Of a stretch of 64,000 nucleotides of DNA, positions 3,175-54,619 are shown piece by piece (the stretch's first letter is position 1; each line of letters begins with the position of its first letter). The notes beneath the pieces are model-generated. The model had not been told where the DNA came from, ran no database searches, and worked only from the letters and a program-made list of their open reading frames with translations. The stretch is from Methanocellales archaeon (lineage in GTDB: Archaea; Halobacteriota; JAWCLZ01): assembly GCA_038850275.1 (NCBI GenBank), contig JAWCLZ010000003.1:28194-92193 (forward strand), written 5' to 3'. The translations under genes and the position numbers were made by a program.

Positions 3175-3564
3175 ATGAAAATTTATATAAAGATTTATAT
3201 AGATGGAGGGGTTAAGGGGCATCAATTCAAAAATAAAAGAACTGGTTTTATCGCTTTAGTTTTAAACAGTGAAGAGATAGTTGAAGAAGTTGGAGCAGTG
3301 ACCAATAATCAAGCTGAATATCTCGCTTTAATAAAAGCACTTGAAATAGCTATTCAGAGAAAAATTCCAAGAGTGGAAGTGCTATCTGATAGCGAGTTAT
3401 TGATAAAGCAGATGAAGAACCTATATAAAGTGAGGAGTGAGAATTTGATCCCGCTTCATAAAAAAGCTAGGGAATTAATTTTAAAACTTGATTCATTTAA
3501 AATGACGTGGATACCAAGGGAGCAAAATTTAGCTGGCAGAGTGCTAAGTAGAAAAATATCGTAA
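3175..3564 (+). CDS. rnhA: Ribonuclease HI (type 1 RNase H)
   Basis: IYIDGG...NNQAEYLALIKALE is the RNase H fold signature. ATG at 3175 is preferred over the TTG at 3163 used by the ORF track. Confidence 0.7.
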   Translation: MKIYIKIYIDGGVKGHQFKNKRTGFIALVLNSEEIVEEVGAVTNNQAEYLALIKALEIAIQRKIPRVEVLSDSELLIKQMKNLYKVRSENLIPLHKKARELILKLDSFKMTWIPREQNLAGRVLSRKIS

Positions 3565-3812: not shown

Positions 3813-4199
3813 TTAAAATGATAAGTTGATCACCTCATCAGCACTGCTTATAACCACTTCCCTCTCTCCTTTGTATTCCTGCACTAATCCATATGCTCGA
3901 ATTCTATCCCCAATTTTAATTCTCTTAGCAAGCTCTTTTGCACCAGCACTCTTGGGTATATAGAGCTTGATATTCGTGGAGTTTGAATTCAACTCTATTA
4001 TTAGATTCTCCCCTGTTTTAGTTGGCTGCTTTGCAATCACAACCCCCGTAGCAGATACTCGCTGGCCTACTCTAGAGCTATTTGAATACTCTGGGGCTTC
4101 GCCTTTAGCAGCTGGAAGTAAATAGAAGAGCGAGAGCGAGGCCAATGAAATGATTAATAGCAATACTATTATTCTCTCCTCTTTTTGAAGCATGTTCAA
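3813..4199 (-). CDS. Membrane-anchored OB-fold protein
   Basis: An N-terminal TM helix is followed by an OB-fold-like domain, GQRVSATGVVIA...IKIGDRIRAYGLV. Confidence 0.45.
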   Translation of the reverse strand: MNMLQKEERIIVLLLIISLASLSLFYLLPAAKGEAPEYSNSSRVGQRVSATGVVIAKQPTKTGENLIIELNSNSTNIKLYIPKSAGAKELAKRIKIGDRIRAYGLVQEYKGEREVVISSADEVINLSF

Positions 4200-4671: not shown

Positions 4672-7362
4672 ATGGATTGGTATTCAAAGAGTATAGAAGA
4701 ACTATTTGTATTATTCAACACAAGTAAGCAAGGTATAACTCAAGAGCAGGCTAAGCAAGCTCTTTTGAAATATGGTTTTAATAAATTAAAGGAGAAGCCA
4801 AAGCCTCATCCCATAATTAAATTCATTGGGCAATTCAAGAGCGTGCCAATTTTAATGCTCATTGCCGCTACTTTTATTCTAGTGCTATTAACCATCTTCA
4901 CGCCTGAGAATAGACTCACTGATGCCATTGTAATTTTAATAGTGATTTTTCTAAATGCAATAATGGGCTACATTCAAGAGGCAAGAGCTGAAAAAGCCAT
5001 GGAGGCTTTGAAGAGGCTCACCAGTCCCAAGGCAAAGGTATTGAGAGATGGCGTGGAGAAGGTAATTGATGTCAAAGAAGTTGTACCTGGAGATATTTTA
5101 CTGCTTGAAGAAGGTGATAGAATACCAGCTGATGGTAGAATTTTGGAATCCCATAATTTAGAAGTAGATGAATCTATGCTCACTGGCGAATCCACTACTG
5201 TTAGAAAAGAAGCAGTTTCACTAGCGGGTAAAGTGCCCATTGCAGATCAAGTAAACATGGTTTTCATGGGCACCATAATTACCAGAGGAAGAGGGAAAGC
5301 TATCGCTGTTGCAACTGGTATGGATACAGAGATAGGTAGAATTGCAAGGTTCATTCAAGAAGAGGAGGAAGAGGAAACACCTCTGCAGCGAAGGCTGAAT
5401 TCAATGGGAAAGCAAATTGGAGCAATTGCACTTGTTGCGATGGTAGTGCTCTTCTCAATAGACATGCTAATACCCCCAAGTAATCTAATTGAGGGATTTT
5501 TGCTTGCTGTGAGCCTCGCAGTTGCAATTATTCCGGAGGGACTGCCAATTGTAACCCTAGTTACTCTAGCTGTTGGCATGCAGATTATGGCTAAGAAAAA
5601 CGCGGTCATAAGGAGGTTAATGTGCGTTGAAACCCTAGGCTGCACTACAGTGATCTGCTCAGATAAAACAGGTACGCTAACTAAAAATGAAATGACCCTT
5701 AGAGAAATGCATATCGCTGGAAAGCGCTATCGAGTTACAGGAGAGGGCTATTCCCCAGAAGGGGAGATCTTGAGCGATGGAGAAAAAGCAGACCTCAATG
5801 ATCCATCACTTAAAAGAGCGTTTGAAATCATGGCTCTCTGCAACAATGCACATTTGATAAAAGAAGGGGGAAAGTGGCACGCAGTTGGCGATCCAACTGA
5901 GGCAGCGCTAGTTGCAGCTGTGGGAAAGGCAAAGCTTAACCCCAAGGAATTGCGAGAAAAGCTTCCAAGAATAGAGGAGAAAATTTTCGACCCCAAGAGG
6001 AAGTATATGACAACTATTCACGCTATAGACAGCGAAGGCAAAATTGCTTTTATAAAAGGCGCTCCTGAGGTGCTACTTGAACTGTCGAAATATATTTTGG
6101 AAAATGGGAGAACTAGGGAAATCACTGAGAGCGATAGAAAAGCAATTGAAAATATAAATCTCGAGTTCGCTTCTAAGGCATATCGCGTGCTCGCCATCGG
6201 CTACAAGCAACTTGGGCAGAGTGAAATGAGTGAGATCGAGAAGGACATGACCCTCGTGGGGATACTTGGAATAGCGGATCCACCTAGGAGTGAGGCAAAG
6301 CGAGCAATAGATCAATGCAGAGAAGCAGGGATTAAAGTGGTGATGATAACTGGGGATCAAAAGAGCACTGCAATTGCAGTGGCAAGAGAACTGGGATTGA
6401 TAACTGGAGATGGCAAGGACAAGGTGCTAACTGGCTGGGAGTTGGATCAAATGGATGATGAGGAGTTCAAAAAGATCGCTGGGGAAGTCAGAGTCTACGC
6501 TAGGGTTTCACCTGAGCATAAGATGAAGATCGTGAATGCATTGAAAAGCAGAGGAGAGATAGTGGCAATGACAGGCGATGGCGTGAACGATGCACCCGCG
6601 CTCACCAAATCAGATATAGGAATCTCCATGGGTATCTCTGGCACGGATGTGGCGAAGGAAGCGAGCGATATGGTGCTCATGGATGATAACTTTGCCAGCA
6701 TAGTTGCAGCAGTTGAGGAAGGGAGGAGGATCTATGATAATATTAGAAAATTCATTAGATATCAACTCTCCACCAACGTTGGAGCAATTCTACTGCTTTT
6801 TCTAGCCACAATTCTCGTGCCATATGCAATACCGATGTACCCAGTTCAATTGCTATGGATAAATATAATGATGGATGGACCACCAGCAATTGCACTTGGC
6901 CTAGAGCCAGCTGATAAAGAAATAATGAAGCGCCCCCCTCGGGATCCAGAGGAAAAGATATTATCTAGTGCGATTTTGAAAGCGATCTTCTTGAATGGAT
7001 GTATAATGGGTCTAGGTGCTTTCCTCCTCTTCTACTGGGCCTACTATTTCAGTGGTCATAGCGATGCCGCGAGATATGCTCAAACCACGACTTTCACAGG
7101 CTATGTTATTTATCAAATGTTCAATGTATTCAACTGCCGATCCCTAGAGAGATCTATTTTTAGCATTGGCTTAACTTCAAATAAATTCCTACTTTTAGCT
7201 GTTTCTACTTCAATTTTCCTTCAAGTGTTGGTAGTCTATGTTCCTTTGTTTAATATTCTCTTTCACACCGTTCCCCTTAAACTAGAGGACTGGGTAGTAA
7301 TACTCATAGCTGCTTCTTCGGTTTTAATCCTTGAGGAGATTAAAAAAGCAATTATTCACTAG
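4672..7362 (+). CDS. P-type cation-transporting ATPase (P2/SERCA-like)
   Basis: 896 aa with TGES, DKTGTLT (phosphorylation site), KGAPE and TGDGVNDAPAL motifs, plus about 10 TM helices. Confidence 0.9.
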   Translation: MDWYSKSIEELFVLFNTSKQGITQEQAKQALLKYGFNKLKEKPKPHPIIKFIGQFKSVPILMLIAATFILVLLTIFTPENRLTDAIVILIVIFLNAIMGYIQEARAEKAMEALKRLTSPKAKVLRDGVEKVIDVKEVVPGDILLLEEGDRIPADGRILESHNLEVDESMLTGESTTVRKEAVSLAGKVPIADQVNMVFMGTIITRGRGKAIAVATGMDTEIGRIARFIQEEEEEETPLQRRLNSMGKQIGAIALVAMVVLFSIDMLIPPSNLIEGFLLAVSLAVAIIPEGLPIVTLVTLAVGMQIMAKKNAVIRRLMCVETLGCTTVICSDKTGTLTKNEMTLREMHIAGKRYRVTGEGYSPEGEILSDGEKADLNDPSLKRAFEIMALCNNAHLIKEGGKWHAVGDPTEAALVAAVGKAKLNPKELREKLPRIEEKIFDPKRKYMTTIHAIDSEGKIAFIKGAPEVLLELSKYILENGRTREITESDRKAIENINLEFASKAYRVLAIGYKQLGQSEMSEIEKDMTLVGILGIADPPRSEAKRAIDQCREAGIKVVMITGDQKSTAIAVARELGLITGDGKDKVLTGWELDQMDDEEFKKIAGEVRVYARVSPEHKMKIVNALKSRGEIVAMTGDGVNDAPALTKSDIGISMGISGTDVAKEASDMVLMDDNFASIVAAVEEGRRIYDNIRKFIRYQLSTNVGAILLLFLATILVPYAIPMYPVQLLWINIMMDGPPAIALGLEPADKEIMKRPPRDPEEKILSSAILKAIFLNGCIMGLGAFLLFYWAYYFSGHSDAARYAQTTTFTGYVIYQMFNVFNCRSLERSIFSIGLTSNKFLLLAVSTSIFLQVLVVYVPLFNILFHTVPLKLEDWVVILIAASSVLILEEIKKAIIH

Positions 7363-13126: not shown

Positions 13127-14023
13127 TTAAATAAGTTCTCTTAAATAGATCTTGTGCCTCCCGAGTTTTCCCCCGTAGTTACCAGCTGATATCTTTACAA
13201 CTCCAGGGGTGTTAATCCCAGCATTTATTGCTTGCTTCATTGCTTGCTTCACTGCTTCCATTGTTATGCCATTTATCACTATCTCAGGAATGGATTTCAC
13301 GCCATTTGGAACTCTAGATTCAGAGCCTAGTTTTTGCTTTAAAGTGGGGCAGTATGGATGATTTGTGGTTGGACCTATCTCGGGATATTTTGTCTCAGGC
13401 TTTGAGCCAGCACTGCAGATGTCAAAAGAGGTAATTGCGCCTTCTATTTTTTCAATTGCCTTAACTGCTTTCTCCCCAACCTTCAATGCCGCATTGATAC
13501 TAGTGCAGAAATACCAGATGTTGCCTCCCATGATTCCCTTTGCATATCCTAAGTAGCGCTCGATTTTAAAGTCATGGCCCATCATAATAGGCACATTTAT
13601 AACCTTCCTTCCATAGTACTCCTCTTCCCATTCATATCCATCGCCGCAGTGGCCAACTTTATCCATTATATCGATTTTTTTCTCAGAATCAGTGGCATTG
13701 AAAACTGCTGTGGTGGGAACCACTAGTATCCCTTGTCTAATCCTCTTGCCTAATTCAACCTCCAAGGTCTTAACTGCTCCCTCCCCGCCTAATATCCAGA
13801 TCTGGATCAATGCGCCAACTCTTCCATCTGGGGTTTGCTTTTTAGTCAGCCATCCTTCAATTCCACCTTCACTCTGGCCAAGTACAGTCAGAGGCAATGC
13901 AGTTGAAGAGAAAGCTGCACGTTGGAGTAATTTTTTATTCCTAGCGGTTATAAGCAAGCGAGAATATAGGCCATCGAAGGCCTCGCAATAGGTATCCTCT
14001 ATAATAGCCGCCATATCAAACAC
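13127..14023 (-). CDS. ftr: Formylmethanofuran:tetrahydromethanopterin N-formyltransferase
   Basis: 298 aa. Collinear with Ftr from N-terminus (IEDTYCEAFDG...LITA) to C-terminus (ISAGNYGGKLGRHKIYLRELI). Confidence 0.9.
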   Translation of the reverse strand: MFDMAAIIEDTYCEAFDGLYSRLLITARNKKLLQRAAFSSTALPLTVLGQSEGGIEGWLTKKQTPDGRVGALIQIWILGGEGAVKTLEVELGKRIRQGILVVPTTAVFNATDSEKKIDIMDKVGHCGDGYEWEEEYYGRKVINVPIMMGHDFKIERYLGYAKGIMGGNIWYFCTSINAALKVGEKAVKAIEKIEGAITSFDICSAGSKPETKYPEIGPTTNHPYCPTLKQKLGSESRVPNGVKSIPEIVINGITMEAVKQAMKQAINAGINTPGVVKISAGNYGGKLGRHKIYLRELI

Positions 14024-16353: not shown

Positions 16354-17439
16354 CTACCTCGTTGAATAGTGCTTTATATTAAATCCCCTTTGCTCTAGAA
16401 ATTCCCTAGTTTTGCCCGTTATCACTAGTTGAGCTTTCTTCAAATCTTCTATGCAAGCGCAGCCACTCAAGAACATTGCAACTTTAAGTTCTTCCATGAT
16501 TAACTTAAGTTTCTCAATCACAGCTACCTCGCTCTTGAGCGCTGGCTTTAGCAATGGCAAGGCAATTCCACAGAGAGAGGCACCTAAGGCAATTGCTTTT
16601 GCAGCATCCAAGCCTGATCTTATTCCACCTGTGGCAATCACGTGCATGTCCTCACTAACCTTTGACTCCACGATGCTAACCGCAGTTGGAATGCCCCAGT
16701 TCCAGAATAATTTACCAAGGCTTTCTCTAACTGCATTTTTCTCAGCAACTGCTCTATAATATTCCACTCCCGCAAAGCTAGTACCGCCTAAGCCTCCAAC
16801 GTCAATCGCGGCTACCCCTGCTTTTTTCAATTCCCAAGCAACTTTATGTGAGATCCCAGCACCGGTTTCTTTAACGATTATGGGAACTTTGCTGGCTTTG
16901 CATATCTCCTTAATCTCCGCGAGCACGCCTTTAGCATTAACATCCCCCTCAAGCTGAATTGCCTCCTGCAAGAAGTTGAGGTGAATTGCCATCGCATCTG
17001 CATCTATCATTTCAATTGCCCTCTCTATGCCCTCAATTCCATATTTCCTTAGCTGTGCAGCGCCAAGATTGCCATATATAAAAGCACTGGGGGCATAATC
17101 CCTAACCACTCTATATGTATCTTCTAAACTGCTGTTCTCGAGAGCAGCCCTCTGACTTCCAACTCCTATGCCTATTCCCAGTTCTTCAGCTGCTTTAGCA
17201 AGTGCTATGTTTACTTTTTTTGTATCCTTGTGCCCCCCAGTCATTGATGCTATTAGCAATGGTGCCTTAAATTCATGTTCCAAGAAGTTTATGGAATATT
17301 CAATGACATCTTTATCCACCTCTGGGAGTGCATTGTGAATTAGGTATATATCCTCAAATCCACTCCACTTTGACTCAACCTCTTTCTCAGCGCAGATATA
17401 TAGATGTTGAATTTTGCGATTTGATGTCTCGCGAGACAT
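16354..17439 (-). CDS. fni: Isopentenyl-diphosphate delta-isomerase, type 2 (FMN-dependent)
   Basis: IDI-2 TIM-barrel signatures. ATG at 17439 (MSRETSNRKIQHL...) is the likely start. The ORF track extends to an upstream GTG at 17457 that overlaps the tandem repeat. Confidence 0.85.
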   Translation of the reverse strand: MSRETSNRKIQHLYICAEKEVESKWSGFEDIYLIHNALPEVDKDVIEYSINFLEHEFKAPLLIASMTGGHKDTKKVNIALAKAAEELGIGIGVGSQRAALENSSLEDTYRVVRDYAPSAFIYGNLGAAQLRKYGIEGIERAIEMIDADAMAIHLNFLQEAIQLEGDVNAKGVLAEIKEICKASKVPIIVKETGAGISHKVAWELKKAGVAAIDVGGLGGTSFAGVEYYRAVAEKNAVRESLGKLFWNWGIPTAVSIVESKVSEDMHVIATGGIRSGLDAAKAIALGASLCGIALPLLKPALKSEVAVIEKLKLIMEELKVAMFLSGCACIEDLKKAQLVITGKTREFLEQRGFNIKHYSTR

Positions 17440-17447
17440 ATTCTTTG

Positions 17448-17566
17448 CTTTATTCACCTTTTATTAACGTACCTCTTGCTTTATTCACCTTTTATTAACG
17501 TACCTCTTGCTTTATTCACCTTTTATTAACGTACCTCTTGCTTTATTCACCTTTTATTAACGTACC
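17448..17566. repeat. Perfect tandem repeat, 31-bp unit x about 3.8
   Basis: CTTTATTCACCTTTTATTAACGTACCTCTTG is repeated head-to-tail at 17448, 17479, 17510 and 17541 (last copy partial). It fills the ipk-idi2 spacer. On the minus strand each unit carries TAATAA and AAAGGTGA. Confidence 0.9.
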
Positions 17567-18319
17567 AAAATTCTCCTCACCGCTTAAAAAGGCTTCTACA
17601 TATCCCTTTTTAGCTGCATTGAATATTCTAGACTTAATCCCTGCTTTAGCAAGCTCTATAAGCTCTTCAACCTTCCCAAGCATTCCCCCTGTTACATCGA
17701 TGTCTTTTGAATTCCATAGATTTAGTGCTTTAAAAGACTGAGGCGTTATCACTGGAATTAAAACGCCATTTTTATCAAGCACCCCTTCGACATCTGTGCC
17801 TAAGCCGATTTGTTTAGCTTTGAATTGCTTCGCTAGGTATACTACTATTTGATCGCCGGATAAAATACCCACGCCTTTTTTAACATCCATTGCTACATCG
17901 CCGTGGAGCACTGGGAGGATATCCTTCTCAAGCATTGTTTCTATAACTTTACATTCAAATGAAACTATCCTTCCATCTTTTAAAGTTGCAGAGGAAAAAG
18001 GATGAACTGGCGCTGCTTTAACGCCCTGTTCTAACAGTGCTTTGATGAAGCAGTCATTTAAATTCCTCACAGCCTCGTGGGTTATTAATACCCCTGCGAA
18101 GTTTTCATTCCTCAAACCCTGGGTTAGCTTATAGGCCTTTGCTTGAGGGTGACCTTGTGAACCCGCGCCATGCACGAGTATTAGATTCTCAGATTTTGAA
18201 GCAATCTCGCTAGCGATTCTCTTGATCTCCTCTAGCTTAAGCCCACCTGCAGTTTTCTTTTCAGTGAGCACGCTTCCACCAATTTTTAAAATCCTCAGCT
18301 TTTTCCCTTCTTTCATCAA
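17543..18319 (-). CDS. ipk: Isopentenyl phosphate kinase
   Basis: Amino-acid-kinase fold (LKIGGSVLT, LVHGAGSQGH). Confidence 0.85.
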   Translation of the reverse strand: MMKEGKKLRILKIGGSVLTEKKTAGGLKLEEIKRIASEIASKSENLILVHGAGSQGHPQAKAYKLTQGLRNENFAGVLITHEAVRNLNDCFIKALLEQGVKAAPVHPFSSATLKDGRIVSFECKVIETMLEKDILPVLHGDVAMDVKKGVGILSGDQIVVYLAKQFKAKQIGLGTDVEGVLDKNGVLIPVITPQSFKALNLWNSKDIDVTGGMLGKVEELIELAKAGIKSRIFNAAKKGYVEAFLSGEENFGTLIKGE

Positions 18320-18333
18320 TCATTACCCTTCTT

Positions 18334-19239
18334 TCATTCAACCATTACCCCTATATCAGTTGCTCTTGTTTCAATGGCTTTGAAGCCTAAAGCGGAGATG
18401 GCTGAGATTATATCTTGCACGCGTGCTCTAGAGCAAATTGCAAACATGCATCCACCGCCCCCTGCACCCGTAAGCTTCGCTCCATATGCCCCTGCTTTTC
18501 TCGCAACATTGCACATCGTTGAGAGCTGCTCTGTGCTAACTCCAAGAGCTTCAAGCAAGCTTTGATTCATATTCATAAGCCTCCCAACAGCTTGATAGTC
18601 AGCTTTCTCTAGATATTGCAAGCCAGTTTTTGAAATATTGCCAATTGTTTTAATAATCCCTTGAGTTATCTCTGGATATTCTAGGTTCAAACTTCTAACC
18701 CTAGCTATCATTTCCTTGGTTGAAGATGGCTTGCAGGAATCCCCTATTACCATGCCCACATCGATAGCGCTGAATCGCTTTCGCTCTGGAATTACCACGA
18801 TTCCTCCAAATGTTGATACATAGGTATCTGTGGGACTTGCTGCACCTTGTACTTCATATTCAACTTCATGTCCAAGTCTAGCTATCTCATCCAAGTTAAG
18901 CCCTAATTTAAATTCTGCATTAAGCGCAGCTAGGGTTGCAACTGTAACAGCAGCCGAGGATCCAAGATGTGCCTCCGCTGGTATTTGAGATTTTATTTCA
19001 ATTTTAACTTTATTTGATATCTTCTTGCATTCTTTGATCTTCTCAATTGCTTTAATTACATATGGGTAGCTCTCAGCTTTATAGTTGGAATGAATCTCAG
19101 CCTCAAAAGCCCCTGAGTTATGCACTTCTACTTTAACCTTAGTTCTCAGATCTATTGCGCATGCAACTGCATTCTCTCCATATACAACCGCGTGCTCCCC
19201 AAAAAAATAGATCTTGCCAGGAGCTGAGCAGACCTTCAT
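18334..19239 (-). CDS. mvk: Mevalonate kinase (GHMP kinase)
   Basis: PGKIYFFGEHAVVYG N-terminus, GHMP motif LGSSAAV, and C-terminal KLTGAGGGGC. Confidence 0.8.
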   Translation of the reverse strand: MKVCSAPGKIYFFGEHAVVYGENAVACAIDLRTKVKVEVHNSGAFEAEIHSNYKAESYPYVIKAIEKIKECKKISNKVKIEIKSQIPAEAHLGSSAAVTVATLAALNAEFKLGLNLDEIARLGHEVEYEVQGAASPTDTYVSTFGGIVVIPERKRFSAIDVGMVIGDSCKPSSTKEMIARVRSLNLEYPEITQGIIKTIGNISKTGLQYLEKADYQAVGRLMNMNQSLLEALGVSTEQLSTMCNVARKAGAYGAKLTGAGGGGCMFAICSRARVQDIISAISALGFKAIETRATDIGVMVE

Positions 19240-22070: not shown

Positions 22071-22114
22071 TATTTATCTTCCTCTTACTGTTTATTTATC
22101 TTCCTCTTACTGTT
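22071..22114. repeat. Tandem direct repeat, 22 bp x2
   Basis: TATTTATCTTCCTCTTACTGTT occurs twice head-to-tail at the 3' end of the usp gene. Confidence 0.8.
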
Positions 22115-27319: not shown

Positions 27320-28243
27320 ATGCAAGCTGTTACCCTTCCTAAACCTGAGGAGAGAACTATTAAAAGACCAGTTGCAAACTGCCCTGGATGCGGTGCAACC
27401 AAGGTTTCCATGGCCTTGAAGGAGGGACTCAGGAGGTATAATAAGGAGAATAAAACTAACTATAAATTGATTTATGTAGCAGATAGAGGCTGCGGCAATC
27501 TTCAAGGTTGGCATGAATATGGAATAGTGGATGCAATTTACAACATGGGCATGGCTCCAATGGTAGCACTAGGAGCTAGATATTCCTCTGGAGGCCCTGA
27601 GAATGGATATATAGTGGTTTGCGCTAGTGGTGATGGTGCTTATAACTTTAATATTAATGGAATGAAGATCGCAGCTCAAGATCCTCCAAGCATGTACATA
27701 ATCTATGATAACTATTCAATTCGCATGACCGGAGGACAACTGGGCCTGAGGAATGACTATGAAGTTGAAGGTAGAGCCATAGGCTTCGATGTTTACTTCA
27801 TAAATCCCTATAGATATAACGAGAACGCAGAGATCTTCAAGAAACTCATAGGGGAATATTTGAATAAAAAGGCAATTATGGTAGTGGCAGATGGCACTTG
27901 CTCTCGAGACCTAAGGGGAATGATCTCAGGCATGGGGATTAAACTAGGTACATTTGTGAGAAGCGAGGGCTGCAAAGACTTAGTGTATCAAAAAGAGAGG
28001 GAAAAAATAGCGAAGGAAAATCCTGAGAAGCTCAAGGAAATGCCTCCATTTAAATGCAGGCTATGTGGAATGCACCTGCGCTGTCAAGCCTTACTGGAGA
28101 ACGACCCAACCCGCTGCTTTAACTGCGGTGCTTGCGCGCATTATGGATGCGAATTTTTAACCTGCCCCGAGCCAAATCTTGCCATGGTTACTGAGCATCC
28201 TAAGAAGTATCAAGAGTTCTTCGAGAAATATGCTAGGAAGTGA
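27320..28243 (+). CDS. OFOR beta-like TPP-binding subunit with a fused C-terminal Cys-rich (ferredoxin-like) tail
   Basis: CPGCG at the N-terminus. TPP motif GDG-x25-YDNYSIRMTGGQ. The tail is FKCRLCGMHLRC...CFNCGACAHYGCEFLTCP. Confidence 0.7.
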   Translation: MQAVTLPKPEERTIKRPVANCPGCGATKVSMALKEGLRRYNKENKTNYKLIYVADRGCGNLQGWHEYGIVDAIYNMGMAPMVALGARYSSGGPENGYIVVCASGDGAYNFNINGMKIAAQDPPSMYIIYDNYSIRMTGGQLGLRNDYEVEGRAIGFDVYFINPYRYNENAEIFKKLIGEYLNKKAIMVVADGTCSRDLRGMISGMGIKLGTFVRSEGCKDLVYQKEREKIAKENPEKLKEMPPFKCRLCGMHLRCQALLENDPTRCFNCGACAHYGCEFLTCPEPNLAMVTEHPKKYQEFFEKYARK

Positions 28244-28935: not shown

Positions 28936-28949
28936 TTTAATTTTATTTT

Positions 28950-29003
28950 ATTATTATTGAGCGTTGTATTATTATTGAGCGTTGTATTATTATTGAGCGT
29001 TGT
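28950..29003. repeat. Perfect tandem repeat, 18 bp x3
   Basis: ATTATTATTGAGCGTTGT repeats at 28950, 28968 and 28986. It lies between convergent genes and overlaps the last codons of the minus-strand gene. Confidence 0.85.
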
Positions 29004-44177: not shown

Positions 44178-44219
44178 GTAGGAGATAAATGCAAGTAGGA
44201 GATAAATGCAAGTAGGAGT
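44178..44219. repeat. Tandem duplication (17 bp x about 2.5) of the RBS/start region of the MTAP gene
   Basis: GTAGGAGATAAATGCAA repeats at 44178 and 44195, with a partial third copy. This creates two ATGs (44189 and 44206). The first opens an 8-codon uORF MQVGDKCK*. Confidence 0.8.
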
Positions 44220-49546: not shown

Positions 49547-49824
49547 ATCAATTGGATAAGATTATGGCTAGATTTAAAAGGATATGCATTGAAAGGATAT
49601 TGAAAAGATAATAAGCATTGAAGTATAATTATTTTTGACAGGAATTATTTAACAGGAAGGTTTTTAAAATGAGAATATGGAAAGTGCACTGTATATATTT
49701 CGTGGAAGCGGAGTCTGAGAAAGAAGCTTGGCTGAAAGCTAGAGAATTCGCTGATAAGGTATCCTCCTTGGGAGAGGTGATTAAAATAGAAGATATTGAG
49801 GCAAGTGGAGTTGCCATTGCCTAG

Positions 49825-49857
49825 CTATTGCTTAGTTATTGCTTAGTTATTGCTTAG
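49825..49857. repeat. Tandem repeat, 11 bp x3
   Basis: (C/T)TATTGCTTAG repeated three times directly at the 3' end of rpoL. Confidence 0.6.
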
Positions 49858-50138
49858 CTATCCCTTTGGGTTGCAGTTAAGAATTTCTTTTTAAATTCAT
49901 CCAACTGCTTGCTTACCTGAGAGGCAGCGTCCCTTAAAACCTCAACTGGATCCGAGCCATCTGTTCTCACATAGAGTATTGGATCGCTTATCAATGGATG
50001 TTCAATGTCATAGGTCGCTGCTTCCACTCGTTTATCCTGAAGCAAGGCTGATTTCAGTAGATTTAAAAAGGTATGTCCTTCTCCACCGATTTCAATTTCA
50101 ATTTCCCTCTCAGATTTAGATAAAACTTTTATCTCCAT
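49854..50138 (-). CDS. rpoL: DNA-directed RNA polymerase subunit L (Rpb11 homolog)
   Basis: IEIGGEGHTFLNLLKSALL...ATYDIEHPL. Confidence 0.8.
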   Translation of the reverse strand: MEIKVLSKSEREIEIEIGGEGHTFLNLLKSALLQDKRVEAATYDIEHPLISDPILYVRTDGSDPVEVLRDAASQVSKQLDEFKKKFLTATQRDS

Positions 50139-50165: not shown

Positions 50166-50252
50166 GATTCTCAATTTTTCAGCTTTAAATTACCGATTCT
50201 CAATTTTTCAGCTTTAAATTACCGATTCTCAATTTTTCAGCTTTAAATTACT
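50166..50252. repeat. Perfect tandem repeat, 29 bp x3
   Basis: GATTCTCAATTTTTCAGCTTTAAATTACC repeats at 50166, 50195 and 50224. It fills the csl4-rpoL spacer and overlaps the last codons of csl4. Confidence 0.9.
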
Positions 50253-54432: not shown

Positions 54433-54619
54433 ATGAATAAAAGCGTGAATCTTTTTTCACCTATTCATAAGATTTCAAAGGCTGCTTCAAAGGCTGCTTC
54501 GACTTAATCCCAGAATAACTAAGCTTGAGCGACTGAGAATTTGAGAAGTCCATATCCCAATGGATAAAGTCCATATCCAAAGAATAATAAGACATTATCA
54601 ATATGTTAAAGGTGGGAAT

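Follow-up and report, generated by a model that had tools for sequence, protein, structure and literature searches.

In a 64,000-nucleotide stretch from a Methanocellales archaeon (GenBank assembly GCA_038850275.1, contig JAWCLZ010000003.1, forward-strand positions 28,194 to 92,193), which we call the window and number from its first letter, the junction between the genes ipk and idi2 is built of a perfect tandem repeat with a period of 31 nt. Our comparison with related lineages points to a recent tandem duplication of the ipk/idi2 junction itself, made in place and of the slippage type, across which translational coupling of the two genes would be relayed by small open reading frames (mini-ORFs) inside the array. 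From the sequence evidence we give this reading a probability of roughly 70%.

Both genes lie on the minus strand. The ipk product (17543..18316; 257 aa from the ATG) has an amino-acid-kinase fold, and a 100%-identical database protein is named isopentenyl phosphate kinase (IPK). The gene idi2 (16354..17457), coding for a type-2 isopentenyl diphosphate isomerase (IDI2), has the FMN_dh fold (Pfam), with an ancestral-type GTG start at 17457 and an alternative ATG at 17439. These assignments agree with the gene identities proposed in the first-pass annotation of this DNA. The nearest species-level genome is a hot-spring Methanocellales metagenome-assembled genome (MAG).

We scanned the array with Tandem Repeats Finder and gauged the chance level with 100 dinucleotide shuffles. 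The array spans 17445..17566 with a period of 31, 3.9 copies, 100% matches, no indels and a score of 244; its 122 nt amount to 3.94 copies of the unit, which reads GGTACGTTAATAAAAGGTGAATAAAGCAAGA on the coding (minus) strand. Matches to the 31-nt array were found in 0 of the 100 shuffles and none is expected by chance, confirming the perfect repeat that had been reported. The extent first given for it, 17439-17566, describes the same unit in a phase (CAAGAGGTACG...) that is a rotation of ours, but it runs too far at one end, as 17439 belongs to the idi2 ATG, 6 nt beyond the array. Copies 1 (17536..17566), 2 (17505..17535) and 3 (17474..17504) are exact on the minus strand, and copy 4 (17443-17473, the array ending at 17445) agrees at 29/31 nt, with ...GCAAAG replacing ...GCAAGA. 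With more than the two head-to-tail copies that define a minisatellite, or variable-number tandem repeat (VNTR), and far above chance, the ipk-idi2 array belongs to this class in form. Within the window the unit is confined to this single array, the units of the other arrays being unrelated to it. The exact 31-nt unit had 0 matches in a metagenome contig collection, and an IPK protein scan of that same collection found no relative.

Each unit contains the 7 final ipk codons and their TAA stop, the ancestral idi2 GTG start and about 5 idi2 codons. The array had been described as filling the ipk-idi2 spacer, which understates it, since the 7 final codons of ipk (GTLIKGE) and its stop already lie within copy 1. 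The ipk end reads GGT ACG TTA ATA AAA GGT GAA TAA (encoding G T L I K G E and a stop), so that the first copy does supply the ipk stop, as had been proposed: it is the TAA of GGTGAATAA (17545-17543), beside the first internal GTG (17550-17548). The TAATAA motif, which had been read as a pair of tandem stops, is not the ipk stop. In the ipk frame it forms the sense codons L-I-K (tTA ATA Aaa), and in the idi2 frame it lies one codon upstream of the GTG. At the other end of the array, copy 4 holds the GTG (17457-17455) that is homologous to the start at which idi2 begins in all relatives, as well as the TAA at 17452-17450 that ends the third mini-ORF. Both proteins are thus unchanged, copy 1 keeping the end and stop of ipk and the last copy keeping the start of idi2, and the best reading is that the duplication has been tolerated because of this.

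The state of the junction before the duplication can be read from relatives. We compared the same operon from six distinct related lineages (L002; L003; L004/L005; L006; L007; L008), with IPK 83-65% identical. In 6/6 lineages ipk and idi2 overlap by 8 nt, the idi2 GTG start lying inside ...GGTGAATAA, and in 6/6 the upstream gene mvk and ipk overlap by 4 nt (ATGA). Co-directional genes with overlaps of -8 and -4 nt, as at these two junctions, are the arrangement by which termination-reinitiation pairs are recognised. A tandem repeat at the ipk/idi2 junction occurs in 0/6 of these lineages; all have it as a single copy that reads ...GGTAC-TTAAT-AGAGGTGAATAA, with GTGGATAG in L007 and GTGGGTGA in L008. 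Because the junction is single-copy in six relatives and base-for-base homologous to the unit, the unit is the ancestral stop/start overlap and its immediate surroundings, copied in place. An origin from local single-copy sequence, with single-copy outgroups, is also what marks a VNTR. The recent expansion suggested by the first-pass annotation is borne out by the perfect copies, by their absence from the six related lineages and by an array one unit shorter in another assembly of the same species.

The relatives also bear on where idi2 begins. In L002 the GTG is the sole possible start, with an in-frame TAA 3 codons upstream and no ATG before the conserved TSNRK motif, and the window protein read from GTG 17457 begins MNKAKNMSRETSNRK, which aligns with MNNIARDIARETSNRK of L002. 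The in-frame ATG 17439, 18 nt downstream of the GTG, is found in the window lineage, unlike all relatives. Judged by this alignment, the conserved idi2 start is the GTG that overlaps the ipk stop, and start annotation is inconsistent across the clade. Automated gene calls put the idi2 start at the ATG (361 aa, as in the same-species assembly L001), and in L005 they place it still further downstream (345 aa).

The same-species assembly L001 (GCA_038848365.1, JAWCNR010000058.1) is independent of that of the window, encodes an identical IPK and, along 2.46 kb of the upstream flank, matches the window at 99.7% identity (8 substitutions). It has 2.9 copies of the unit where the window has 3.9, a difference of exactly one unit between two metagenome assemblies, of which L001 is chimeric or recombinant downstream. 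At about 250 bp into idi2 (L001 ~2690, window ~17190) the identity switches, and from there L001 is 100% identical to L002 (JAWCMA010000002.1), a different Methanocellales MAG. L001 is thus either a metagenome chimera or the product of a recent recombination whose crossover fell in a conserved idi2 stretch, not at the repeat. The drop in identity was considered as a recombination breakpoint at the repeat, and this was rejected as the switch lies inside idi2. The comparison of copy number across related genomes that the first-pass annotation had called for thus yields six single-copy lineages and a pair of same-species assemblies at 2.9 and 3.9, with exact counts that are insecure in metagenome assemblies. 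The existence of the array is secure; only its exact copy number is uncertain. Exact-protein look-ups of four products encoded in the window, IDI2, Csl4 (190-aa start), a 147-aa protein and a PNP-family protein, returned no database record.

All-frame translation of the array shows three identical ORFs of 12 codons, MNKARGTLIKGE followed by a stop, which begin at GTGs 17550, 17519 and 17488. As 31 equals 1 mod 3, every internal GTG opens such a mini-ORF, ending at a TAA that overlaps the next GTG. On the minus strand, mini-ORF 1 (17512..17550) shares 8 nt with the ipk stop at its own GTG and 8 nt with the next GTG at its own TAA; mini-ORF 2 (17481..17519) is identical to it, and so is mini-ORF 3 (17450..17488), whose TAA overlaps idi2 GTG 17457 and precedes ATG 17439 by 10 nt. 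All three are bounded by GTGAATAA overlaps at both ends. The -8 stop/start overlap that relatives have once is therefore present 4 times in the window array, one per unit junction, and the fourth GTG (17457) is the one that opens idi2.

We then considered the signals for initiation of idi2. Shine-Dalgarno (SD)-type cores in the window (GGTGA, AGGTG or GGTGG) stand 4-8 nt upstream of candidate starts. In the last copy, GGTGA stands 14 nt away from ATG 17439 and has the ancestral GTG start within it, and neither idi2 start candidate, GTG 17457 or ATG 17439, has a well-placed SD. Their absence fits termination-reinitiation rather than de novo binding of ribosomes. The last copy had been credited with the ribosome-binding site (RBS) of idi2. 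It does carry initiation signals, but AAAGGTGA is not primarily an RBS, because the GTG within it serves all relatives as start codon. The stop of the last mini-ORF is at -8 from GTG 17457 and at +10 from ATG 17439.

Previous studies have established how such geometries behave. In Haloferax volcanii and E. coli, the most frequent distances between genes are overlaps of -8, -4 and -1 nt, which are a signature of termination-reinitiation (PMC10666635). Reinitiation at +13/14 nt reaches 40-60% of that at the native overlap and has all but vanished by about +22 nt in H. volcanii, while in E. coli the upstream gene's final 15 nt are enough for reinitiation (PMC10666635). Of the overlapping pairs tested, 13/14 were strictly coupled (PMC6728339). 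Given the loss of reinitiation by about +22 nt, a plain 93-nt spacer should break the coupling of ipk and idi2. Each unit carries 21 nt of ipk 3' sequence and the -8 overlap, and a relay through the mini-ORFs, if real, would explain how a coupled junction tolerates a 93-nt insertion.

The sequence of events that we propose starts from an ancestral junction in which ipk and idi2 overlapped by 8 nt, with the idi2 GTG inside ...GGTGAATAA, a geometry typical of termination-reinitiation coupling. A segment of about 29 nt across this overlap would have undergone a single duplication, with a 2-nt GA or an equivalent change of 1 nt at the join, and the resulting 31-nt unit would then have grown to 3-4 copies, presumably via slipped-strand mispairing or unequal recombination. 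Ribosomes that finish ipk might be handed on from mini-ORF to mini-ORF until they reach idi2, and the model predicts that IDI2 output might fall somewhat with each added unit. The tuning of translational coupling by copy number, put forward in the first-pass annotation, is possible; the mechanism to which the sequence points is another one, a relay of 12-codon mini-ORFs that each retain the ancestral -8 overlap of stop and start.

Several points weigh against this reading. The translation of the relay is a step that we infer purely from the layout, and this layout itself is no evidence of selection: a stop adjoins the GTG in every frame of the unit (TAA, TAATAA and TGA), so that any period would give a coupling-compatible arrangement. 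For the same reason the idea of selection for a period of 31 (1 mod 3) as a means to the relay is unsupported. ATG 17439 of the window lineage might be used independently, and the organisms in which termination-reinitiation has been demonstrated are Haloferax and E. coli rather than Methanocellales. With respect to the copy-number difference, a perfect array of 91-122 nt can be mis-resolved in metagenome assemblies, which makes exact copy numbers insecure, and one of the two assemblies compared, L001, is a chimeric or recombinant contig.

Tandem duplications are common elsewhere in this DNA. The operon is encoded on the minus strand in the order ribosomal protein S2, Memo-like protein, mevalonate kinase, IPK, IDI2, RNase J and polyprenyl synthase, followed by Ftr (Pfam). 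At the junction between ipk and mevalonate kinase (mvk, 18334..19239, minus strand, GHMP kinase fold, the upstream gene of the operon) a 22-nt unit is present 2.1 times (18305..18350, minus strand, stop-spanning), with 92% identity and one indel. This duplication has split the ATGA overlap of mvk stop and ipk start that all six relatives keep, and it has left a 4-codon mini-ORF (MKEG and a stop) 6 nt upstream of the ipk ATG. This is the same kind of event as at ipk/idi2, earlier and since decayed.

Across the 64 kb we count 12 perfect tandem duplications of period at least 8, against 0.55 expected. Among the 10 arrays with a period of at least 11, 7 span a stop codon, 1 covers an RBS and start codon, 1 is intergenic and 1 lies inside a gene, which bears out the statement that similar repeats occur at other gene junctions of the window. 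A crude neutral-target model predicts a stop-spanning share of 15-38% (P ~0.001-0.01, from few arrays and an approximate gene map). Unit boundaries were also considered as clustering just after stop codons; the mean normalised offset of about 0.33, against 0.5 expected, was not significant (n = 7). A 12-nt duplication at 2292-2316 spans the stop of a DUF362 gene and the start of a DUF72 gene, 22 nt x 2 at 22071-22114 span a Usp gene stop, and 18 nt x 3.1 at 28949-29003 span the stop of a 147-aa ORF that faces a convergent POR-subunit gene. At 44178-44218, 17 nt x 2.4 duplicate the RBS of a PNP-family gene together with its ATG and first 4 codons and create an 8-codon upstream ORF. The intergenic case is 12 nt x 2.25 at 54474-54500, and the case inside a gene is an in-frame 12-nt duplication in Ftr (13227-13257).

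The csl4-rpoL region shows the same process in several lineages. A perfect 29 nt x 3.0 array at 50166-50251, with a degenerate partial copy to about 50140, spans the csl4 stop and lengthens the csl4-rpoL spacer of the window to 104 nt; in relatives (L009-L012) this spacer is 9-13 nt long. Just downstream of the array, tggaaaaattgaggagctgaaataaat resembles a further copy that is older and has decayed. Between the stops of rpoL and of a convergent 51-aa ORF, the window has 11 nt x 4.2 (49816-49861). At the rpoL 3' end of L009, L010 and L011 (3853-3895) lies instead the 14-nt unit AAAGCATAAATGCT x 3.07, identical in three independent assemblies, and at that of L012 (~3868-3935) the 11-nt unit GCTATGCTTCA x ~6. 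The rpoL 3' end thus has an array in every lineage with a unit that differs, its position being conserved while its sequence turns over. The simplest reading of these arrays is that the clade forms short tandem duplications often, and that these would persist mainly where they straddle gene ends and no protein is altered.

The 5' end of idi2 seems to be another recurrent and tolerant site of duplication across the clade. The first idi2 codons of relatives carry in-frame tandem duplications of their own, of 9, 12 and 15 nt: ATAGCACGC x 2 (IAR-IAR) in L004/L005 (3279-3296), an imperfect 12-nt duplication (IARD/IARE) in L002 (~4785-4808) and CGCGGAA(A/C)ATCCAAT x 2 in L007 (~3275-3305). In the window, a perfect 12-nt palindrome, GTCTCGCGAGAC (17425-17436, minus strand), directly follows ATG 17439 and forms a small hairpin in the predicted fold; the relatives have the non-palindromic gcacgcgagacc at this site.

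Against this background we weighed other explanations of the ipk-idi2 array. The array may be a neutral insertion by which coupling was lost, idi2 now initiating de novo at ATG 17439 or GTG 17457 and copy number having no effect; we regard this as possible, although rather unlikely. The in-frame ATG present in the window lineage only, the GGTGA upstream of it, and the many window arrays at sites where coupling is impossible, such as the convergent gene ends at 28949 and 49816, argue for it, as no function would be needed. However, that GGTGA falls outside the 4-8 nt range of the window's SDs and no other SD is present, and both distances of the last mini-ORF stop, -8 to the GTG and +10 to the ATG, are within the range that predicts reinitiation (PMC10666635). 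The opposite view, that copy number is under selection as an expression rheostat of the contingency type which sets the IDI2:IPK ratio, seems doubtful to us. In its favour, copy number differs between assemblies with nearly identical flanks, every added unit is one more reinitiation step, and reinitiation is less than fully efficient and sensitive to geometry. Yet there is no sign of selection, and the same kind of array is found at 3' ends without a downstream gene. The 14-nt x 3.07 array of the relatives is not hypervariable, being the same in its three assemblies, IPK and IDI2 are not known as subunits of a complex that needs a fixed stoichiometry, and the copy-number difference may be an assembly effect. 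We likewise give little credence to a broader proposal, in which the four -8 overlaps and three 12-codon ORFs would form a translational relay or attenuator ladder, gain and loss of units by slippage would set the IDI2:IPK ratio heritably and reversibly, and junction duplication would recurrently pull coupled genes apart and make spacer DNA clade-wide (mvk/ipk, csl4/rpoL, rpoL 3' end). A limited literature search on junction-splitting duplications of overlapping prokaryotic genes found nothing relevant, which is no proof of absence.

Readings that do not involve translation fare worse. The A/T-rich unit (TTAATAAAA) could act as an iterated TATA-like box and drive idi2 transcription independently of ipk, as it holds TTAATAAA, which by eye is 2 mismatches from the archaeal TATA consensus TTTATATA. 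This is improbable: we recognised no BRE-like element upstream, octamers at two mismatches from the TATA box are common at 40% GC, and the same stretch is ordinary coding sequence (LIK) in all relatives. Promoter activity of the spacer between senX3 and regX3, made of mycobacterial interspersed repetitive units (MIRUs), offers a precedent for it (PMC4213456). Assembly artefact, with copies created or miscounted by the assembler, is suggested by the metagenomic source, by an array of 91-122 nt that nears short-read length and by the chimerism of L001 250 bp downstream. We consider it very improbable, as two independent assemblies whose flanks differ at single nucleotides both have the array, the arrays in the window have varied periods (11, 12, 17, 18, 22, 29, 31), reach 3-4 copies and are associated non-randomly with gene ends, the copies at mvk/ipk have diverged to 92%, which artefacts do not do, and one relative's array is identical in three separate assemblies. 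A k-mer artefact with period 31 was rejected on the same evidence of varied periods, a shared array and a diverged duplication. Least probable of all is the insertion of a mobile or dispersed repeat (MIRU-like, or like miniature inverted-repeat transposable elements or repetitive extragenic palindromes) or of a structured RNA element. The operon-spacer position and the unit-borne ORFs that overlap their neighbours do resemble MIRUs, but the unit is base-for-base homologous to the single-copy junction of the relatives, and its confinement to one array in the window, the 0 exact metagenome matches and the unrelated units of the other arrays led us to reject a dispersed repeat. The predicted fold is no better than that of shuffles (minimum free energy -20.7 kcal/mol against a shuffle mean of -22.1 kcal/mol, z = 0.43) and the single match in an Rfam scan was at chance level (E = 0.48), so that a structured RNA or known RNA family was rejected as well. 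Transcription termination was rejected because the coding strand has no oligo-T tract, its longest T run in the array being 2.

If the duplicated junction does relay coupling, a tightly coupled junction can take an insertion of about 90 nt without losing downstream expression, which would offer a simple way to build graded coupling into synthetic operons. The locus is also a natural experiment on coupling, the -8 overlap being single in relatives and apparently threefold or fourfold in two populations of the same species, in an operon for archaeal lipid precursors that is conserved and essential. With the other arrays, it also illustrates how spacer DNA between genes can arise by duplication of gene ends in compact archaeal genomes. 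For annotation it is a warning, as gene callers chose ATG 17439, whereas the conserved GTG start lies within the repeat. If the array is only a product of neutral slippage, it is an ordinary VNTR and at most a strain marker.

Finally, we compared the locus with known systems. Like the termination-reinitiation pairs described before (Huber et al. 2019; PMC10666635), the relatives have a -8 overlap at ipk/idi2 and a -4 overlap at mvk/ipk, and the same geometry recurs in every unit of the array. Those pairs have one overlap, whereas here it occurs 4 times with 12-codon ORFs between, and the coupling is putative. Phase-variable contingency repeats share with the array a slippage-prone repeat near translation signals, but they have units of 1-8 nt in coding regions or promoter spacers and switch frame or spacing. 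The 31-nt unit lies outside both final coding sequences and its gain or loss alters neither the ipk nor the idi2 frame, so that phase variation was rejected and the analogy to phase-variable slipped-strand repeats, drawn in the first-pass annotation, fails.

The MIRU-VNTRs of Mycobacterium operon spacers, such as senX3-regX3, are closer: their head-to-tail units of tens of bp also lie between co-directional genes of an operon. The senX3-regX3 spacer has three 77-bp units in H37Rv and two 77-bp plus one 53-bp in CDC1551 (PMC4213456), and the short ORF of a MIRU unit is coupled at a -4 nt overlap to what follows (PMC12548453). Here, too, a unit-borne short ORF in operon orientation overlaps the stop and start of its neighbours, in the form of the three mini-ORFs and their GTGAATAA overlaps. 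MIRUs, however, are a dispersed, apparently mobile and sequence-related family at many mycobacterial loci, whereas this unit is locally made, archaeal, present at a single locus and has a -8 overlap; with a Methanocellales-type host and a unit homologous to its own junction, it lacks, as judged without a direct alignment to a MIRU sequence, the MIRU similarity and also the mycobacterial host by which members of that family are known. From ordinary bacterial and archaeal minisatellites, that is, slipped-strand VNTRs, it differs in nothing essential, sharing the perfect head-to-tail copies, the derived state and an apparent copy-number difference between near-identical genomes; what is special is the content duplicated, a complete stop/start overlap. 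The best reading of these comparisons is that the locus represents an ordinary slippage-type tandem-repeat polymorphism, with MIRU-VNTRs as its closest analogue and not as its family.

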